Positions 4,400 to 42,273 of a DNA stretch of 64,000 bases are shown here, piece after piece. Made by a program: the position numbers and the translations under genes. The DNA is taken from sequence record NC_024794.1, one strand, 5' to 3'. Every line of letters begins with the position of its first letter. Position 1 is the first letter of the stretch. Source of the DNA: Escherichia phage vB_EcoM_PhAPEC2. A model generated the notes under the pieces. The model saw nothing but the letters and a program-made list of their open reading frames with translations. It was not told where the DNA came from and searched no databases.

Positions 4400-6088
4400 T
4401 TATGAAACAGTCATTACCGTAAATCGTCCAACTTTGCTCATCTGAAGATGTTGTCCATAACGTTGAGGGTCATGGTCTCGATGAGAGATAATGAACACGT
4501 TAGTATTTTGTAAACTTCCAAGAATGGTATCTATAGCCTTAACAGCTTCAGAATCTACAGCGCCGTCAAAAACCTCATCAAGAATCAACGTGTTGATTTT
4601 AACACCGGAGACCTTTTCAGCAATATCTCGCCATGTAAACAACAATGCGATATCGATACGTGCCTTTTCACCTTGACTAAATGAAGCATAACTAAAATCT
4701 TCACGACCACGTGATTTTATAGATTCATTGAATTCTTCGTCAATAGAAAACACGTAATCAGCTTCCATGATTTTAAGATAATAGTTAATCTGCTTGTTGA
4801 ACAGAGGCACGTATTTTTTAATGATAGCACCTTTAATACCAGAATCTTTTAACATATCTGTGATAATACCACGATGGTATTTTTCAAGAACGATATCTGA
4901 TTTTGTTTTAATGATTTTATCAAGTTCTTTTTGAAGCAAAGCTATTTCATCGGCATGGTCGATAAATTCCGCCGAGGCTTGTTCTATTGCAGCTTTAACT
5001 TTCTTAGCTTTATCAATAGTGGCAATCATTGCTTGTTTCTTGGTACGAATATCAGATGCAAGGTCCTGTTTAGTCTTAACATTAGCTCTATATTCGTCCA
5101 CTAGGACACTCAGATTATCTCTGTGACAGGTAAGTTGCTCGAATGAGTGATTACATTCATGAAGCTTATCGGTAATCTTAGAGACAATAGGATCACCCTG
5201 GTGCAACTGTGATGCACAAGTAGGACATGTACCGCCATCATGATACATCTTAATAACTTTGTTATATGAGTCAATTTTAGATTTAATCAAGAATGCTTCT
5301 TGTCCTATCTTGTTGAATGCCTCGGTAGGGTCTTCATCAAGAACGATATTAAGTAGTCGCTCATTAGCTTCTTCGATTTCTGCTTTTAATGAACGAGCTT
5401 CTTTGGCTAGGTCGTCATACATATTCTGTAGACGAGCTACATTATCACCAGATAATTTCTTTTGACGTTCGATATTCTCGTTATAAATCTTAATTTGTTG
5501 GATAACACCATCTTTCTTAGCATCGAGAACTTGTCCCTGGGAATTAAGTTCTCGAACTTGAGACTTATTGATTTTATCCATTTCAGCGAGTGTGCCGACT
5601 TCTAAAAGGTCTTCGACAAGTTTTCTACGAGCAGGGGTGCTAAGAGCCATGAAAGGGGTATACCCTGCCGTCCCAAGCACAACGATTTGTTTAAAAGACG
5701 CATATGACATTCCGATGCTACGTTCAAATTCTTCTTGGAAGTCACGACTGCTGGCAGATTCATCGAGACGAACACCGTCAACGGAGATTTCGAAAATATT
5801 GGGCTTTTGTCCACGTCTAATGAAGTATTTTTTATCATCGAATTCCATCCAAAGCTCAACTAAGAGCTCTTTCTTGTTCGTGCTATTAATGATTTGTCCT
5901 TTCTTAACATCACGAAATGGTTTACCGAAAAGTCCGAAAGTAATGGCTTCTAACATCGTAGATTTACCACCGCCATTTTTACCAGTGATTAATGTCTTTT
6001 GGACTTTATCTAATTGGATATCAATAGGATTCCCACCTACCGACATGATGTTTTGATAACGAACACGATTTAATTTAAATGATTTCAT
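4400..6088 (-). CDS. 46: Recombination endonuclease subunit gp46 (Rad50/SbcC-like ATPase)
   Basis: 562 aa; N-terminal Walker A GKNGGGKST, long coiled-coil middle, C-terminal signature/Walker B (LILDEVFDG). Confidence 0.93.
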   Translation of the reverse strand: MKSFKLNRVRYQNIMSVGGNPIDIQLDKVQKTLITGKNGGGKSTMLEAITFGLFGKPFRDVKKGQIINSTNKKELLVELWMEFDDKKYFIRRGQKPNIFEISVDGVRLDESASSRDFQEEFERSIGMSYASFKQIVVLGTAGYTPFMALSTPARRKLVEDLLEVGTLAEMDKINKSQVRELNSQGQVLDAKKDGVIQQIKIYNENIERQKKLSGDNVARLQNMYDDLAKEARSLKAEIEEANERLLNIVLDEDPTEAFNKIGQEAFLIKSKIDSYNKVIKMYHDGGTCPTCASQLHQGDPIVSKITDKLHECNHSFEQLTCHRDNLSVLVDEYRANVKTKQDLASDIRTKKQAMIATIDKAKKVKAAIEQASAEFIDHADEIALLQKELDKIIKTKSDIVLEKYHRGIITDMLKDSGIKGAIIKKYVPLFNKQINYYLKIMEADYVFSIDEEFNESIKSRGREDFSYASFSQGEKARIDIALLFTWRDIAEKVSGVKINTLILDEVFDGAVDSEAVKAIDTILGSLQNTNVFIISHRDHDPQRYGQHLQMSKVGRFTVMTVS

Positions 6089-33167: not shown

Positions 33168-33393
33168 CTCGGTCCCATGATTTGGCCATTAATTCGGACA
33201 TAAATTCTTCAATGCGCGTTTCTTTAGACGGACTTTCACTATTAGAGACCGCAAGTTTGTAATCTGCAATAGGACGGAACAAATCAAGGTCCATATTAAG
33301 ATCGTCTTTGATTTTTTCTTCTGACACATCTTTATCGTATGTGTACAGATAACTATCACATGATTCTGATTTAATGTAAATTGCTATACTCAT
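33157..33393 (-). CDS. Hypothetical acidic protein
   Basis: 78 aa from ATG 33393 (MSIAIYIKS...), ATGA-coupled. Confidence 0.4.
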   Translation of the reverse strand: MSIAIYIKSESCDSYLYTYDKDVSEEKIKDDLNMDLDLFRPIADYKLAVSNSESPSKETRIEEFMSELMAKSWDRDDE

Positions 33394-33881
33394 CTCAAAT
33401 TCCTGCATTCGGTAATAAAACGTTCAACTTCATTATTCTTGGCTTTTATCTTGTCTTTATGTTCTTGTAAACTACTTTTAATAAGATTAATAATGATGGC
33501 AGCGGTACCACCGCCAATGATGCCACCAACAACACTTATGATACTAGATGCTAATAAGATAGCAATAATATCAACAAAACCGAAAGAACTCACCTTAGTA
33601 CTAAAAAACCACACTGACGGTACAAATATAATCCATCCTGTTATCCATTGGCACTTATTGAAAAACTTTTCAAGCTCAGCTTGAGTTGTTCGTATTACTT
33701 CATCGATAGGTTGATATCCGTTAATGTATCTGTTCACAATAATACCTGCTGGCTGGTCGATTTTAAATTCTTGGCAAATATGTTTCACTAAGTAGGATGG
33801 ACATCCTGTCCAATCTACTGAATAGTATGAAATACCTTCATTGCCATCGTCTATATTAGACCAATATGTTTTGTTAATCAT
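33390..33881 (-). CDS. Membrane protein, FIKECR-tail family member
   Basis: 163 aa; hydrophobic core, Gly-rich segment, C-terminal ...ERFITECRNLR. Confidence 0.5.
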   Translation of the reverse strand: MINKTYWSNIDDGNEGISYYSVDWTGCPSYLVKHICQEFKIDQPAGIIVNRYINGYQPIDEVIRTTQAELEKFFNKCQWITGWIIFVPSVWFFSTKVSSFGFVDIIAILLASSIISVVGGIIGGGTAAIIINLIKSSLQEHKDKIKAKNNEVERFITECRNLR

Positions 33882-34568: not shown

Positions 34569-34874
34569 TTATTTTCCTCGACATTCTTTAATGAAATTTT
34601 CTAGATTGGTAGATTCAATAGCTTTTTTACGAGCTTCTGCGTGTTCTTCTTCAGACAATTTACGTTTATAATTGACCCAGACATTATGGTCTAAACCAGT
34701 TGTGGCATATAATATCAAAGCTCCGACGAATAATAAAAACGGTGATAAAAATATACAACCAGGAACACCATCCATACTGTAAGCCTTTTGTAATACGGCA
34801 ACAGAAAGAGCTGCGTAAAAAAGCGATGCAAATATTGTAAAAAGACCGATTCGGTTGGTTTCGCCTAATTTCAT
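34569..34874 (-). CDS. Membrane protein, FIKECR-tail family member
   Basis: 101 aa; two hydrophobic segments; C-terminal ...LENFIKECRGK. Confidence 0.55.
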   Translation of the reverse strand: MKLGETNRIGLFTIFASLFYAALSVAVLQKAYSMDGVPGCIFLSPFLLFVGALILYATTGLDHNVWVNYKRKLSEEEHAEARKKAIESTNLENFIKECRGK

Positions 34875-34944: not shown

Positions 34945-35901
34945 TTATTTGAAAGGTTTTACCATATGGAAATTTTGTTTGAAACGTTTTACGTAATCGT
35001 CGTGTCCTAAGCTTTGGTACATACTTACAACTTTGCTGTAGTTTTCCCAGGCGTATTCACGGAACCAACCGGAGGTGATGCTTGTGCAGACTTTTTCTAA
35101 TGCCATCATGAAACTGGCTTCAGGGTTAATTTTAAAGTCATTAGGAATCTGAGAACGTTCTAACGCTAGTACACATGATTCTTCGTATACACCGGCCAAT
35201 TTGACCATTTCTGGTAACGATTCGAACTTCTCGCGTGAGGTCATGACTTCAGAACCGTCTTTCATGTAAAACGTATAAGCCGGACGGTCTGTTAGTGCAA
35301 TGGCTTCATGAATAGTATCATGGTCATATGTATAGATGTCATCTTTAAAGAACGCACTTTTAGAAGTGTCAAGAACTGGGTGAGCATAGTTCAAAGTTTC
35401 TTTCTGGCGTTTCAGCATAATTTCAGTAAGTTCATCGTTCAGTGTAACACCTTTACCACGAAGATACTGGATATGGTTCATAGTCTTTAAAAAGAATGGA
35501 TTATTTTTCTTGAAACGATGAGACATTTTAATTGCAAGACATATCTCAGGAGTTGCCCAGTAAAACCCGGTCAAACGATCTTTAGTCAAATTTTTCTTGG
35601 CGTATTTTAAAAGGTCATAAGAAGACGTGAAATCTTCAGGAGTGAGTTCGCCGATTAATTCACGGACATTAGTGATTGCCGGAACAATATACGCTTCAAA
35701 ATGAGTTTCGCGTCCGTTATGGAAGCATTTGAAAACTTGGACATCAGGGTTATCTTGGTGAACATATACACCCATCATTTGATTTTTGAATGCATTCCAA
35801 GAACATTGGTCTGCAATAAAGTCCCAGTCACTATTTTTGATAGCGTTAGAATCAATAAGACCATGATAGTGAAGTGCACGAGAACCAATAACTAACATCA
35901 T
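34945..35901 (-). CDS. Hypothetical protein (318 aa)
   Basis: Long ORF; no motif recognised by eye. Confidence 0.55.
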   Translation of the reverse strand: MMLVIGSRALHYHGLIDSNAIKNSDWDFIADQCSWNAFKNQMMGVYVHQDNPDVQVFKCFHNGRETHFEAYIVPAITNVRELIGELTPEDFTSSYDLLKYAKKNLTKDRLTGFYWATPEICLAIKMSHRFKKNNPFFLKTMNHIQYLRGKGVTLNDELTEIMLKRQKETLNYAHPVLDTSKSAFFKDDIYTYDHDTIHEAIALTDRPAYTFYMKDGSEVMTSREKFESLPEMVKLAGVYEESCVLALERSQIPNDFKINPEASFMMALEKVCTSITSGWFREYAWENYSKVVSMYQSLGHDDYVKRFKQNFHMVKPFK

Positions 35902-35929
35902 AATATTTTCCTCGGATTAATTCATTAAC

Positions 35930-36169
35930 TTAAATTTCACGACATGCGATATTATATTCATCCCAGAGGTCATCATGTGAAGCCTCTACCAATGGAACGA
36001 TTGTACCGTTTATGTCTTCATTATAAGGGCAAATTGTACAGTGCGCGTCTTCGAATCGGATGCCTTTGTGTTCAGATTTTTTATAACGCATATCGAATAT
36101 CTTTGCAAACTTTTCACGAGTAATGGTTTTAGCAACCACTTTGGTTCCAATACTTTCGTAATAAATCAT
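35930..36169 (-). CDS. Hypothetical small Cys-containing protein
   Basis: 79-aa ORF, ATG verified at 36169. Confidence 0.5.
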   Translation of the reverse strand: MIYYESIGTKVVAKTITREKFAKIFDMRYKKSEHKGIRFEDAHCTICPYNEDINGTIVPLVEASHDDLWDEYNIACREI

Positions 36170-36188
36170 TGTGGACTCCGTTTAATTT

Positions 36189-36227
36189 GATAGGACTACT
36201 ATAACATAGCCCTATCTTGTTGTAAAC
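36189..36227 (-). promoter_or_regulatory. PeSL-like early promoter cassette (TTTACA-N17-TATAGT)
   Basis: Minus GTTTACAACAAGATAGGGCTATGTTATAGTAGTCCTATCAAATTAAAC. Confidence 0.5.
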
Positions 36228-36231
36228 TGTT

Positions 36232-36429
36232 TTAGCAAGAATAACTAGATGATACCCAGCCTTGAACAGTGATACTATTGTGGGATAATGAGATCGCGTC
36301 CTGGAGATTCAGACCTGCGTTATCTTCAATCCATAATGTAACTTCTTCGCGTTCTTCTGTTGCAATTTGGAACAGGTTTTCCAGGGCAGCTACTGCCGTA
36401 CGTACAGCACAATCTAATTCACGAGACAT
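36232..36429 (-). CDS. Small protein, WVSSSxxC-tail family member
   Basis: 65 aa ending ...QGWVSSSYSC. Confidence 0.5.
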   Translation of the reverse strand: MSRELDCAVRTAVAALENLFQIATEEREEVTLWIEDNAGLNLQDAISLSHNSITVQGWVSSSYSC

Positions 36430-36438
36430 ATGATTTCC

Positions 36439-36711
36439 TTAACAAGTGTGAGAAGATGCAACCCAACCACCAGTTTCGAGGCTCAGGTTGTAGTCGTATT
36501 GGTAAACGTCGGCCCATTCAGCATAGCCGTTTTTTGTACAACGTTCAAGATCGGCTTTAAGATGTCCTGGTGAATGATAGGTTCCACCCATACCATAAGC
36601 TGGGTACAAGTCGAATGTTGTGTTTTGTTTATCAGCAATTTCTTTGGCAGCCTCAATAGCTGCATAGATTTTTGCTACGGCTTCAGCCAGTTCGGTTTGT
36701 TCTTTAGACAT
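36439..36711 (-). CDS. Small protein, WVSSSxxC-tail family member
   Basis: 90 aa ending ...GGWVASSHTC; shares GGTYHSPG-like motif with next paralog. Confidence 0.5.
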   Translation of the reverse strand: MSKEQTELAEAVAKIYAAIEAAKEIADKQNTTFDLYPAYGMGGTYHSPGHLKADLERCTKNGYAEWADVYQYDYNLSLETGGWVASSHTC

Positions 36712-36720
36712 AATGATTCC

Positions 36721-37026
36721 TTAGCACAACGCAGAAGACGAAACCCAAGCACCTTCAGTAATAACGTAACCATTACCTTCACGCTTAACATCGCCACCAT
36801 TATTTTCAATTTCATCTTTCATCCACTGGGATACGATTTCACCCTTAGGATAATAAGTACGACCGCTACCATAATCACCTACAGAAAATGATACGGCATA
36901 TTGGTCTGCGATCTTTGTTGCTTCTTCTTCGATACGTTCAGCTTGATTCAGAAGTTTATAAATTGCATCTGAAGCGGATTTGGCATCATTAAACTCTGGT
37001 ACTTTAATTTCAATAATCTTACTCAT
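36721..37026 (-). CDS. Small protein, WVSSSxxC-tail family member
   Basis: 101 aa ending ...GAWVSSSALC. Confidence 0.5.
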   Translation of the reverse strand: MSKIIEIKVPEFNDAKSASDAIYKLLNQAERIEEEATKIADQYAVSFSVGDYGSGRTYYPKGEIVSQWMKDEIENNGGDVKREGNGYVITEGAWVSSSALC

Positions 37027-37382
37027 TTTCTACATTCCTTAATAAAGTTTTCAATTGTTTCATTTTCACGTCTAGCTAGGAGTTCATTATAACTAATCAT
37101 TTGAGAAGCGTAAACCTTTTTATTTTTCTTGTTATGGTTTATAAAATCGTAGTAAAAATAGACTACAGTACAAAATGATGCGATGGATGCAAAGGCTTGG
37201 GTGTATCTTAGGTCCTGCCATTGGTCTGTGAATCCACCGGTATTCCCTATAAATCCTAACACAACTCCGTCAATAAGAAATCCAACTAATCCAAAGGCAA
37301 ATCCCATGCCAATACTCATAATAAAAATTAGAATGTTCTCACCAAGAGACGGCCATACGGTTAAGAGTTGAGGCTTTTGCAT
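37023..37382 (-). CDS. Membrane protein, FIKECR-tail family member
   Basis: 119 aa; two TM-like segments; C-terminal ...ENFIKECRK. Confidence 0.5.
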   Translation of the reverse strand: MQKPQLLTVWPSLGENILIFIMSIGMGFAFGLVGFLIDGVVLGFIGNTGGFTDQWQDLRYTQAFASIASFCTVVYFYYDFINHNKKNKKVYASQMISYNELLARRENETIENFIKECRK

Positions 37383-37756
37383 CTTATTTCCTTAACGAAT
37401 TCCATAGCTTCTTCATATTCATATTTTTTAACAGCTTCATCATACTGAGCTTGGGCTTTTGCGCACTGAACTTTCCACTCGCGAACTCGAGCTCTGTGAT
37501 GACGGCCTTGGTGCCAATATCCTGCCCAATTAATAGGCATTAATAAAAACGGTACAATAAGTGGTGCGACGAACATTAATGAAAACGCTGCATCAGACGA
37601 TATAACTTTATTGGAATCTAAAATAGCTCCTATAATCATAAAGATTAAAAATGCTAAAGCTAAAATAGGGCCAAATAGTACTTCGTTTGGGATTAATTTA
37701 CGTTTGTATTCGTATGCCCATGGCTTAATTGGCATGTACAGGGTTGGCTTTGACAT
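37361..37756 (-). CDS. Membrane protein, FIKECR-tail family (divergent; start uncertain)
   Basis: ORF with hydrophobic segments; C-terminal ...EFVKEIRCKSLNS; alternative ATGs at 37786/37756/37735. Confidence 0.45.
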   Translation of the reverse strand: MSKPTLYMPIKPWAYEYKRKLIPNEVLFGPILALAFLIFMIIGAILDSNKVISSDAAFSLMFVAPLIVPFLLMPINWAGYWHQGRHHRARVREWKVQCAKAQAQYDEAVKKYEYEEAMEFVKEIRCKSLNS

Positions 37757-38327
37757 ATTCTCTACATTCCATAATAAATTGCTCAAGGATTAAATTGTTA
37801 GTGAAATTAGGACTAACAACCATAGTTTCATAAAGCGCATCAATAGCACTTAAAGCATCAACTCTTTTAAGCAAAGGCTTGCCTTCATACATAGTTTCAG
37901 AATCGACGATTAACGTAAAGTAATATTTTTTATTATCGACTAGAACTTCTGTGTCGATATAAAACATATTAGACCTCAGAAGCTTATCTCTAAAACCATA
38001 ATAATCTTCTGAACGTTCGCTGATATATTCCAATTCAGTGTTTAAACAACAAACAGACCACGTAGGAGCAACGAAATCAGTGAATCTAATATCATGGTCT
38101 GCAACTAGTTTAGCAATAGCTCCGATATCATGAATCATAATACCTGGGGCTAATAAAGATTTTCTGCTATGGCTAGCAGTTTTCTCAGTGGTCTCATAAG
38201 AAGCTGACCAGTACCATTTACGTCCGGTTGCAACATATCGTAATGAATCAACTAAAGACGTAGGTGGATTTACCTTATCTCGGAACTCTTCGAACATTGA
38301 GTCAATATCATTATTTTGGTTTCGCAT
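37725..38327 (-). CDS. Hypothetical protein (200 aa) with FIMECR-containing C-terminus
   Basis: ATG 38327 with SD AAAGGAG directly after the terminator at 38346-38368. Confidence 0.5.
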   Translation of the reverse strand: MRNQNNDIDSMFEEFRDKVNPPTSLVDSLRYVATGRKWYWSASYETTEKTASHSRKSLLAPGIMIHDIGAIAKLVADHDIRFTDFVAPTWSVCCLNTELEYISERSEDYYGFRDKLLRSNMFYIDTEVLVDNKKYYFTLIVDSETMYEGKPLLKRVDALSAIDALYETMVVSPNFTNNLILEQFIMECREYVKANPVHAN

Positions 38328-38345
38328 GTTAACTCCTTTATTATC

Positions 38346-38368
38346 CAAAAGGAGGACCGGAGTCCTCC
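38346..38368 (-). terminator. Rho-independent terminator (GGAGGAC-N4-GTCCTCC + U-run)
   Basis: Minus GGAGGACUCCGGUCCUCC followed by UUUUGG. Confidence 0.55.
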
Positions 38369-38376
38369 GCATTATT

Positions 38377-42039: not shown

Positions 42040-42115
42040 TGGTCGAGACAGTAGGGATCGAACCTACGACCTAGGACTTAGAAGGTCCTTGCTCTTCCTT
42101 CTGAGCTATGCCTCG
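42040..42115 (-). tRNA. tRNA-Arg (anticodon UCU)
   Basis: Hand-folded 76-nt cloverleaf incl. encoded CCA: acceptor CGAGGCA/TGTCTCG, D-arm GCTC/GAGC, anticodon loop CTTCTAA, T-arm GTAGG-TTCGATC-CCTAC. Confidence 0.85.
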
Positions 42116-42119
42116 TATT

Positions 42120-42194
42120 TGGCGGACGTGCATGGATTCGAACCATGGGCCAATTGATTAACAGTCAACTGCTCTACCACTGAGCTACACATCC
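42120..42194 (-). tRNA. tRNA-Asn (anticodon GUU)
   Basis: 75-nt cloverleaf GGATGTGTAGCTCAGTGGTAGAGC...CTGTTAA...GGTTCGAATCC...CCA; 4-nt spacer to neighbours. Confidence 0.85.
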
Positions 42195-42198
42195 AAAT

Positions 42199-42273
42199 TG
42201 GTGGCCCTGGCTGGTTTCGATCCAGCTACCTATCAGTTATGAGCTGACAGCTCTCCCATTGAGCTACAGGGCC
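42199..42273 (-). tRNA. tRNA with CAU anticodon (elongator Met or lysidine-type Ile2)
   Basis: 75-nt cloverleaf GGCCCTGTAGCTCAATGGGAGAGC...CTCATAA...GCTGG-ATCGAAA-CCAGC...CCA; G1-C72 pair argues against initiator. Confidence 0.8.

Follow-up and report, generated by a model that had tools for sequence, protein, structure and literature searches.

What do three adjacent small genes do in a T4-type phage when their products all end in almost the same few residues, the last of them a cysteine? The question is raised by Escherichia phage vB_EcoM_PhAPEC2 (NC_024794.1), of which we analysed one stretch of 64,000 nucleotides, hereafter the window. A preliminary description of this DNA, drawn from its letters, had reported three adjacent, co-oriented open reading frames (ORFs) ending in GWVSSSYSC, GGWVASSHTC and GAWVSSSALC, two of them sharing a GGTYHSPG / GSGRTYYPKG motif, and had called them a local gene-family expansion with a conserved Cys-terminated tail. 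The three ORFs exist where it placed them, with the endings it gave, and the shared motif is present; their common orientation was also right, the strand, left unstated there, being minus (Table 1). What it missed was the key context, as the array is one half of a two-part cassette whose other half is a nucleotidyltransferase (NTase)-like gene. Here we show that the superfamily to which these small tail proteins belong stands in a near-obligate, two-way genomic association with this NTase-fold enzyme.

Tail genes and enzyme gene accompany each other

We gathered loci from both directions, covering flanks of ±5-6 kb around each anchor. With the enzyme as anchor, 29 of 30 viral loci (41-97% identity) have, on the strand of the enzyme gene and no more than 3 kb upstream of it, one to six tail ORFs, and 96 of the 97 motif-bearing plus-strand ORFs in the enzyme-anchored loci fall within that interval. 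With the small protein as anchor, recognised by the YGMGG peptide pattern only, the enzyme gene lies within 6 kb (E≤1e-77) in 46 of 48 loci; one of the two exceptions is cut by a contig end, leaving 46 of 47 informative loci. The contexts of two divergent members, P0130 and P0132, agree with the linkage, one of them with a seven-gene array.

The same linkage is present in phAPEC8 (Stephanstirmvirinae), Otagovirus phiPsa397, Acinetobacter phage AC4, Pseudomonas phage PsgM04F and Yersinia phage fHe-Yen9-01, and in five contigs from metagenome-assembled genomes (MAGs), among them ones assigned to MAGs of Saccharibacteria and of Bacteriovoracales. Stenotrophomonas phage YB07 shows the inverse order: its tail genes (5207-5452 and 5425-5745 of locus L043, endings GWLASSQSC and LWMPSSQEGC) lie downstream of the enzyme gene, and the linkage thus survives a change of gene order. 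Unrelated phage lineages and metagenomic contigs have comparable tail arrays, of one to seven genes. Since the genes flanking the cassette differ from lineage to lineage, tail genes and enzyme travel as a unit. Homologues in Streptomyces, Gordonia and Vibrio phages that consist of the C-terminal domain of the enzyme, DUF7275, and are devoid of its NTase half have no tail genes nearby.

One superfamily with an invariant C-terminus

From the loci gathered around the enzyme gene we extracted 91 distinct tail-bearing proteins (41-173 residues). No variation in this set affects the Trp, the Ser at W+3 or the terminal Cys, which lies at W+7 (n = 67), W+5 (n = 23) or W+8 (n = 7); in one further tail the Cys at W+7 is followed by a single extra residue. 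The tail takes the form W-x-x-S-S-x-x-C-COOH or a short form, W-x-x-S-x-C. A regular expression for the tail served to gather part of the family, and profile-based sets confirm the invariance independently of it. A HMMER profile search of 1.84 billion representative proteins (E≤1e-3, clusters at 50% identity) returned 263 clusters matching the small-protein profile. The best 150 of the 263 are all 58-144 residues long and show no fusion to other domains. The tail stands at the extreme C-terminus in 142 of 144 new top matches, and within the W+7 class of the profile hits W, S(+3) and C(+7) are found in 129/129 and S(+4) in 128/129.

Although the 91 proteins form several similarity clusters, they align as one superfamily with a common layout: first an amphipathic helix at the N-terminus, with the ending A-D-x-x-G-x-x-F, then a short beta region, then a variable acidic stretch and, to close, G-x-W-x-x-S-S-x-x-C. 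The helix is the best-conserved part after the tail, and the beta region often carries a YG[MS]GGTYY loop. Members are about 60-145 residues long and acidic, with a median isoelectric point (pI) of 4.4. All three window proteins have the ending by which we delimit the superfamily, a C-terminal W-x-x-S-[S]-x(0-3)-C with the stop codon immediately after it. Across T4-like loci the 90- and 101-residue types belong to cluster 0 and the 65-residue type to cluster 2. The 90-residue protein is of the AYGMGGTY type that predominates in the family and has a near-identical representative, P0183, in the exhaustive search, while the 65-residue protein is devoid of the YG.GG loop.

The similarity among the window proteins reaches beyond their last nine residues. 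BLASTP aligns the 90- with the 101-residue protein at E = 3e-6 over 73 residues, and the 65-residue protein with these two at E = 4e-4 and E = 1e-3, respectively; a single profile aligns all three through the N-terminal helix, the beta region and the tail. Homologues of the 101-residue protein were recovered by tblastn from 390 phage records, with alignments reaching the terminal Cys. As for the local gene-family expansion proposed earlier, the paralogy stands, but a local, lineage-specific origin does not, because each paralogue has its own orthologues across Tevenvirinae genera. We reject a recent local duplication on account of these deep orthologues and of pairwise identities of only ~22-31%; the three genes are, judging from these comparisons, true but old paralogues.

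The shared ending is not a matter of chance: of the 415 six-frame ORFs of at least 35 residues in the window, none but these three has the W..S.{1,4}C ending, where 0.05 would be expected. Across the tail set the Ser(+3) codon is TCN in 66 cases and AGY in 32, and both TGT and TGC serve for the Cys. The use of both serine codon classes indicates conservation at the protein level, which bears out the earlier view of the Cys-terminated tail as a conserved feature. Compared with two ~98%-identical phages, the differing codons are synonymous and non-synonymous at 8:1 and 9:1, and the three tail genes are, by this measure, under purifying selection. The stop codon is TAA in 86 of 104 tail genes, and with TAA so predominant we reject selenocysteine or read-through at the terminal Cys.

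Searches with the small proteins gave no match to an antitoxin, HEPN, carrier-protein or RiPP family and nothing significant in Pfam, NCBIfam or PADLOC, where in PADLOC the best value was 0.01 to PDC-S49 over 36 residues. By sequence, single or as a profile, the PDB yielded only generic helical or designed proteins. The PHROG bins of the window proteins, phrog_899 and phrog_4882, are of 'unknown function', and the literature searched mentions neither the small proteins nor the enzyme domains. Labels in single GenBank records for neighbours or family genes ('sulfurtransferase', 'major capsid protein', 'prohead scaffold') are isolated, automatic and devoid of profile support, and we set them aside.

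Several members depart from the common pattern. One subfamily has a second, internal motif copy (DW-x-x-S-S-C-Y-G-E), and hybrids occur. The seven-gene tandem array that precedes the enzyme gene in L050 (2395-4099) includes one degenerate ending, GGWNASDM, which lacks the Cys, and another with one residue beyond the Cys. The deposited RB69 orthologue of the 101-residue protein (P0002 / RB69ORF139c) is a 71-residue truncated form without the tail, and an Enterobacter-type locus (L016, 4353-4598) holds a frameshifted two-motif paralogue; these two cases reflect errors, of sequencing or of annotation, or else the natural decay of individual members of an array.

The partner looks like an intact nucleotidyltransferase

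The partner of the array, a protein of 318 residues, matches DUF7277 over residues 2-101 and DUF7275 over residues 120-305 in Pfam, scoring 96.5 and 265.1 bits where the gathering threshold is 27. Residues G6, S7, D25, D27 and E69 are invariant in 69 enzyme homologues and make up the hG[GS]/DxD/acidic signature by which pol-beta-type nucleotidyltransferases are recognised; in the helical C-terminal half, too, many polar residues do not vary. A very confident AlphaFold2 model, with a predicted local distance difference test score (pLDDT) of 93.6, has the pol-beta-type NTase fold. Its nearest folds in the PDB are ANT(2'') and LnuA, which nucleotidylylate antibiotic hydroxyls, and MenT, which acts on the 3' ends of transfer RNA (tRNA), with the MenT toxin family as the best structural match. 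By sequence, the enzyme belongs to no known NTase family of Pfam, none of the 69 homologues matches PF08843/DUF1814 at E≤5, and a PDB profile search found no MenT. Taken together, the enzyme looks active and catalytically intact, as far as its conserved residues and modelled fold can tell.

Of ~50,700 deposited phage genomes, 732, spread over several phage lineages, encode the enzyme, and 2,211 protein clusters of a metagenome-scale database match it at E≤1e-3. The DUF7275-only proteins (~255 residues; L044 4630-5328, L045 4600-5420, L046 4991-5356) are followed by one or two paralogous proteins of 105-153 residues ending in [WY]xxSxDGSxxDGxxxEVxPxxKTVxxY, perhaps a separate family of partners for DUF7275. 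Residues 272-279 of the enzyme read C-T-S-I-T-S-G-W without variation; reversed (W-G-S-T-I-S-T-C), they resemble the tail pattern W-x-S-S-x-x-x-C, a likeness that is probably coincidental.

A predicted fold that ends in the tail

We modelled the 101-residue protein with AlphaFold2 from a 41-sequence alignment and obtained a confident model (pLDDT 90.3, predicted TM-score 0.78). It consists of helix 15-43, strands 47-49 and 56-59, helix 67-75, strands 79-83, 86-91 and 93-96, and a turn at 97-100. The strands 47-49 and 56-59 flank the YG.G loop, here a DYGSGRTYY hairpin. W94 lies in the last strand, suggestive of a structural anchor, and S97-L100 form the terminal turn. Being i and i+4 in this turn, Ser(+3) and Cys(+7) would stand side by side, next to the free carboxylate. 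A fold search of BFVD with the model gave uncharacterised family members only, and no relative of solved structure was found. A ubiquitin-like or ThiS-MoaD sulfur carrier, with its beta-grasp and C-terminal Gly-Gly, is rejected on both counts, for the fold and the terminus are wrong.

Layout of the cassette in the window

At 98% identity, the region matches Mosigvirus phages, RB69/JS09-like phages of the T4 type that include Shigella phage JK36 and Escherichia phage SA79RD. The cassette occupies an accessory region with gene e/nudE on one side and a tRNA cluster (42040-42273) on the other, as a ~2.1-kb minus-strand block (34945-37026) just downstream of an e.3-like gene. Reading along the minus strand, the order is the e.3-like gene followed by genes for 101, 90, 65, 79 and 318 residues (Table 1). 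The ATG of the 101-residue gene overlaps the stop of the e.3-like gene, and the three tail genes are separated by 9-nucleotide spacers, with a Shine-Dalgarno sequence, AAGGAA, overlapping the TAA stop. From the array to the enzyme gene it is 330 nucleotides, with the 79-residue ORF in between. This ORF is accessory, found among the loci examined only in L005, L006, L011-L014 and L021, all T4-like. In phage T4 itself (L051 7653-8320), e.2 and e.3 overlap directly, so that the enzyme gene, the 79-residue gene and the three tail genes are absent from that junction.

Table 1 Cassette features and adjoining elements in the window
Feature	Position	Strand	Remarks
e.3-like gene	37023-37382	minus	
Tail protein 1, 101 residues, RB69ORF139c orthologue	36721-37026	minus	phrog_899, E=1.3e-22; ends EGAWVSSSALC
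Tail protein 2, 90 residues	36439-36711	minus	phrog_899, E=3.5e-19; ends TGGWVASSHTC
Tail protein 3, 65 residues, RB69ORF136c orthologue	36232-36429	minus	phrog_4882, E=7.7e-37; ends VQGWVSSSYSC
W-x-x-S-S-x-x-C codons of protein 1 (W94-C101)	36724-36747	minus	read from sequence
Corresponding tail codons	36442-36465 (protein 2), 36235-36258 (protein 3)	minus	
79-residue ORF, tail absent	35930-36169	minus	phrog_3723, E=7e-37; CTICP motif, ends NIACREI
318-residue partner enzyme	34945-35901	minus	N-terminal pol-beta-type NTase domain (DUF7277) and helical DUF7275
Middle-promoter-like site, TTTACG-17-TATAAT	37086-37114	minus	inside e.3-like gene, upstream of array; consensus match only
Early-type promoter-like site, TTTACA-17-TATAGT	36198-36226	minus	consensus match only

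Two putative promoters accompany these genes. The one upstream of the array has GCTT 14 nucleotides before TATAAT, which makes it resemble a T4 middle promoter, and is annotated as a T4-type middle promoter in SA79RD. The other lies directly after the stop of the 65-residue gene, ahead of the 79-residue and NTase genes, and its sequence overlaps that of a weak hairpin, listed in SA79RD as a terminator.

Five minus-strand genes flanking the cassette (33390-33881, 34569-34874, 37023-37382, 37361-37786 and 37725-38372; e.2/e.3/e.4/e.5-like, several of them predicted membrane proteins) have another common C-terminal tail of the type (E)xF[IV]xEC/IR.., namely ERFITECRNLR, ENFIKECRGK, ENFIKECRK, EFVKEIRCKSLNS and EQFIMECREY... 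This ExF[IV]xEC-type tail recurs on neighbour genes in other T4-like loci and partly coincides with the AAGGAA Shine-Dalgarno sequence and start codon of the next gene. In unrelated contigs (L047, L050, L044, L043, L046, L040, L004) the recurring neighbours of the cassette are genes for an ART-PolyVal ADP-ribosyltransferase, an RNA ligase, a GatB/YqeY-domain protein, NAMPT, phosphoribosyl pyrophosphate synthetase and Sir2, and a DprA-like gene with a NinI phosphatase and a DNA methyltransferase. From its gene content, this accessory context looks like one of RNA repair, nicotinamide adenine dinucleotide (NAD) metabolism or counter-defence.

Discussion

The conserved linkage points to an undescribed module of an enzyme and its partners. 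The reading that we favour, at somewhat less than an even chance, is that the small tail proteins work with the adjacent NTase, the tail being a recognition handle and its Ser most likely an acceptor for transfer. The Trp would anchor the last beta-strand within the fold, and the exposed terminal turn would offer the Ser hydroxyl beside the Cys thiol and the free carboxylate. By means of the constant tail a single enzyme could recognise every paralogue, and the tail Ser would most likely accept a nucleotidyl (or phosphoryl) group. The result would be a module of 'one enzyme, several tagged small proteins', expressed early or middle in infection. Contact between the proteins, a Ser that serves as acceptor and whatever biological target there may be are what we infer.

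Chemistry of this kind has parallels. In HepT-MntA (a type VII toxin-antitoxin (TA) system) and in GlnD-PII, an NTase-fold enzyme nucleotidylylates a small partner on a side-chain hydroxyl, that of a Tyr in HEPN (Rx4-6H) or in the PII T-loop. The phage cassette resembles them in having a pol-beta-type NTase gene beside a small-protein gene, and the chemistry proposed here would be the same; it differs in its candidate acceptor, a Ser in a C-terminal tail, and in a partner fold without known relative. CitX and MdcG (EC 2.7.7.61) attach a phosphodiester-linked, thiol-bearing group to a Ser of the acidic carriers CitD and MdcC. The phage proteins share the small size and the acidity (pI ~4.4), and they have both an invariant Ser and a thiol, but no relation in sequence or fold was detected, the phage thiol is that of an encoded terminal Cys, and citrate-lyase or malonate-decarboxylase genes are not present with the phage module.

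A number of observations weigh against the enzyme-and-acceptor reading. The array and the enzyme gene have a promoter-like site between them in the window and sometimes unrelated small genes elsewhere. The linkage has rare true exceptions: L017, a locus that looks complete, has the enzyme gene and not one tail gene within 5 kb of it, and L052 has a tail gene but no enzyme gene within 6 kb. It is not obvious why a pure acceptor would need an invariant Cys at its end; the Cys stands 5, 7 or 8 residues after the Trp, a variation unusual for a strict enzyme site; and the nearest structural relatives of the enzyme act on tRNA or small molecules, not on proteins.

A more specific form of the favoured reading, bolder and less likely but with an appreciable chance, is a genuinely new phage protein-tagging system in which a dedicated MenT/ANT-like NTase would load, by nucleotidylylation or phosphorylation, the invariant Ser beside the C-terminal Cys of small effectors or carriers that form a diversifying set. 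If true, the Ser-O-nucleotide/Cys-SH pair would make a reactive terminus by which host targets, for instance tRNA or components of defence systems, are modified or inhibited, and large lytic phages would share a widespread new logic of post-translational modification.

We rate an antitoxin-like or adaptor role almost as high as an acceptor role. Taken by itself a doubtful but serious possibility, it holds that the small proteins are antitoxin-like inhibitors or specificity adaptors of the enzyme and not its substrates, binding the NTase by the helix and/or the tail. Acting as a plug, the terminal Cys thiolate and carboxylate would chelate the catalytic metals, or the Ser would serve as a pseudo-substrate; acting as a tether, the tail would link the enzyme to the binding target of each variable body. 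Small proteins made in the middle phase would in that case silence or divert an enzyme made early, in keeping with the middle-type promoter-like site before the array and the early-type one before the enzyme gene. The gene linkage speaks for this explanation exactly as it does for the favoured one, and so do the MenT family as best structural match, the position of the small genes, which usually precede the enzyme gene as in TA operons, and the combination of constant tail and variable bodies, a classic adaptor layout. The 29-residue N-terminal helix of the small proteins, so well conserved, also has a precedent: one extended alpha-helix is all that MenA1, the cognate antitoxin, uses to interact with MenT1, and the MenA antitoxins are drawn from families unrelated to each other (PMC11375011).

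The resemblance to MenAT and AbiE, TA systems in which a DUF1814 NTase has its partner gene upstream, comprises this one long helix of MenA1 against the long conserved helix of the phage proteins, the GS and DxD catalytic motifs of the enzyme and the small partner gene or genes usually just upstream. The differences are that the phage enzyme falls outside PF08843/DUF1814 by sequence and is similar in fold only, that it has a large extra DUF7275 domain, that its one to seven partners share an invariant W-x-x-S-S-x-x-C end, and that the module resides in lytic phages. To our knowledge, no such terminus occurs in MenA or AbiEi. Other points speak against the regulatory explanation: one inhibitor would be enough, yet arrays of up to seven divergent paralogues are kept; TA logic has little meaning in a lytic phage; the L017 enzyme has no partner nearby; and DUF1814/AbiEii membership by sequence is lacking.

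It is rather improbable that the small proteins hit host targets alone and that the enzyme is merely a co-inherited, co-regulated island neighbour. The terminal Cys might then be inserted into a host metallo- or sulfur-transfer enzyme, for instance, or the YGMGG loop might make the protein a ligand sponge. Small, acidic, probably early- or middle-expressed and fast-diverging, the proteins do look like host-takeover or anti-defence proteins, and the accessory regions are rich in such genes (ART-PolyVal, Sir2, NAMPT, RNA ligase); the L052 tail gene without enzyme and the promoter-like site that splits two units in the window fit as well. However, adjacency is kept over phage families, different flanks and inverted order (46/47 in the reverse and 29/30 in the forward direction), far beyond what co-location in an island would give, and the DUF7275-only homologues lose the tail genes along with the NTase half.

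A still lower probability attaches to a pathway like that of ribosomally synthesized and post-translationally modified peptides (RiPPs), in which the tail would be chemically transformed and the tandem genes would be multiple precursors of one maturase. The chemistry might be Ser dehydration with Cys addition, cyclisation onto the C-terminus or conversion of the terminal Cys into a small molecule, as in pearlins, whose scaffold peptides, such as TglA, carry a C-terminal Cys. Tandem arrays of up to seven small genes beside a single modifying enzyme, conserved Ser and Cys exactly at the C-terminus and the internal motif repeats (DWxxSSCYGE...) of some members recall such systems. In contrast to them, the phage proteins are predicted to be well folded and pair a conserved tail with a variable body, the reverse of leader/core logic; YcaO, radical-SAM, LanB/M/KC, protease and transporter families were not found among the neighbours; and the ring size would vary across the W+5, W+7 and W+8 classes. 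Last, a DNA-level origin of the shared ending (terminator, ribosome-binding site or recombination site), or ORFs that are not genuine genes, is extremely improbable and, on sequence evidence, effectively excluded: the stops of tail genes do overlap the Shine-Dalgarno sequence of the following gene, but the mixed Ser and Cys codons, the ~9:1 excess of synonymous differences from close relatives, the model pLDDT of 90 and the 263 protein clusters found by profile search all speak against it.

Whichever role the small proteins play, we file the module as an NTase with cognate small partner protein(s). By profile score the window proteins are members of existing PHROG and Pfam bins (phrog_899, phrog_4882, DUF7277, DUF7275), but nowhere do these bins note the tail, the fact that the two PHROGs form one superfamily or the link between small proteins and enzyme. 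An annotation rule that combines the tail regular expression with a DUF7277/7275 neighbour unifies phrog_899, phrog_4882 and other bins. The module is common and present in well-used model phages (RB69, JS98, phAPEC8 relatives), yet every member is annotated 'hypothetical'. An invariant eight-residue C-terminus on fast-evolving small proteins, tied to one enzyme, makes for a sharply defined hypothesis, and its pursuit may lead to a new protein modification, a new way of controlling a MenT-like NTase or a new family of host-takeover or anti-defence effectors.

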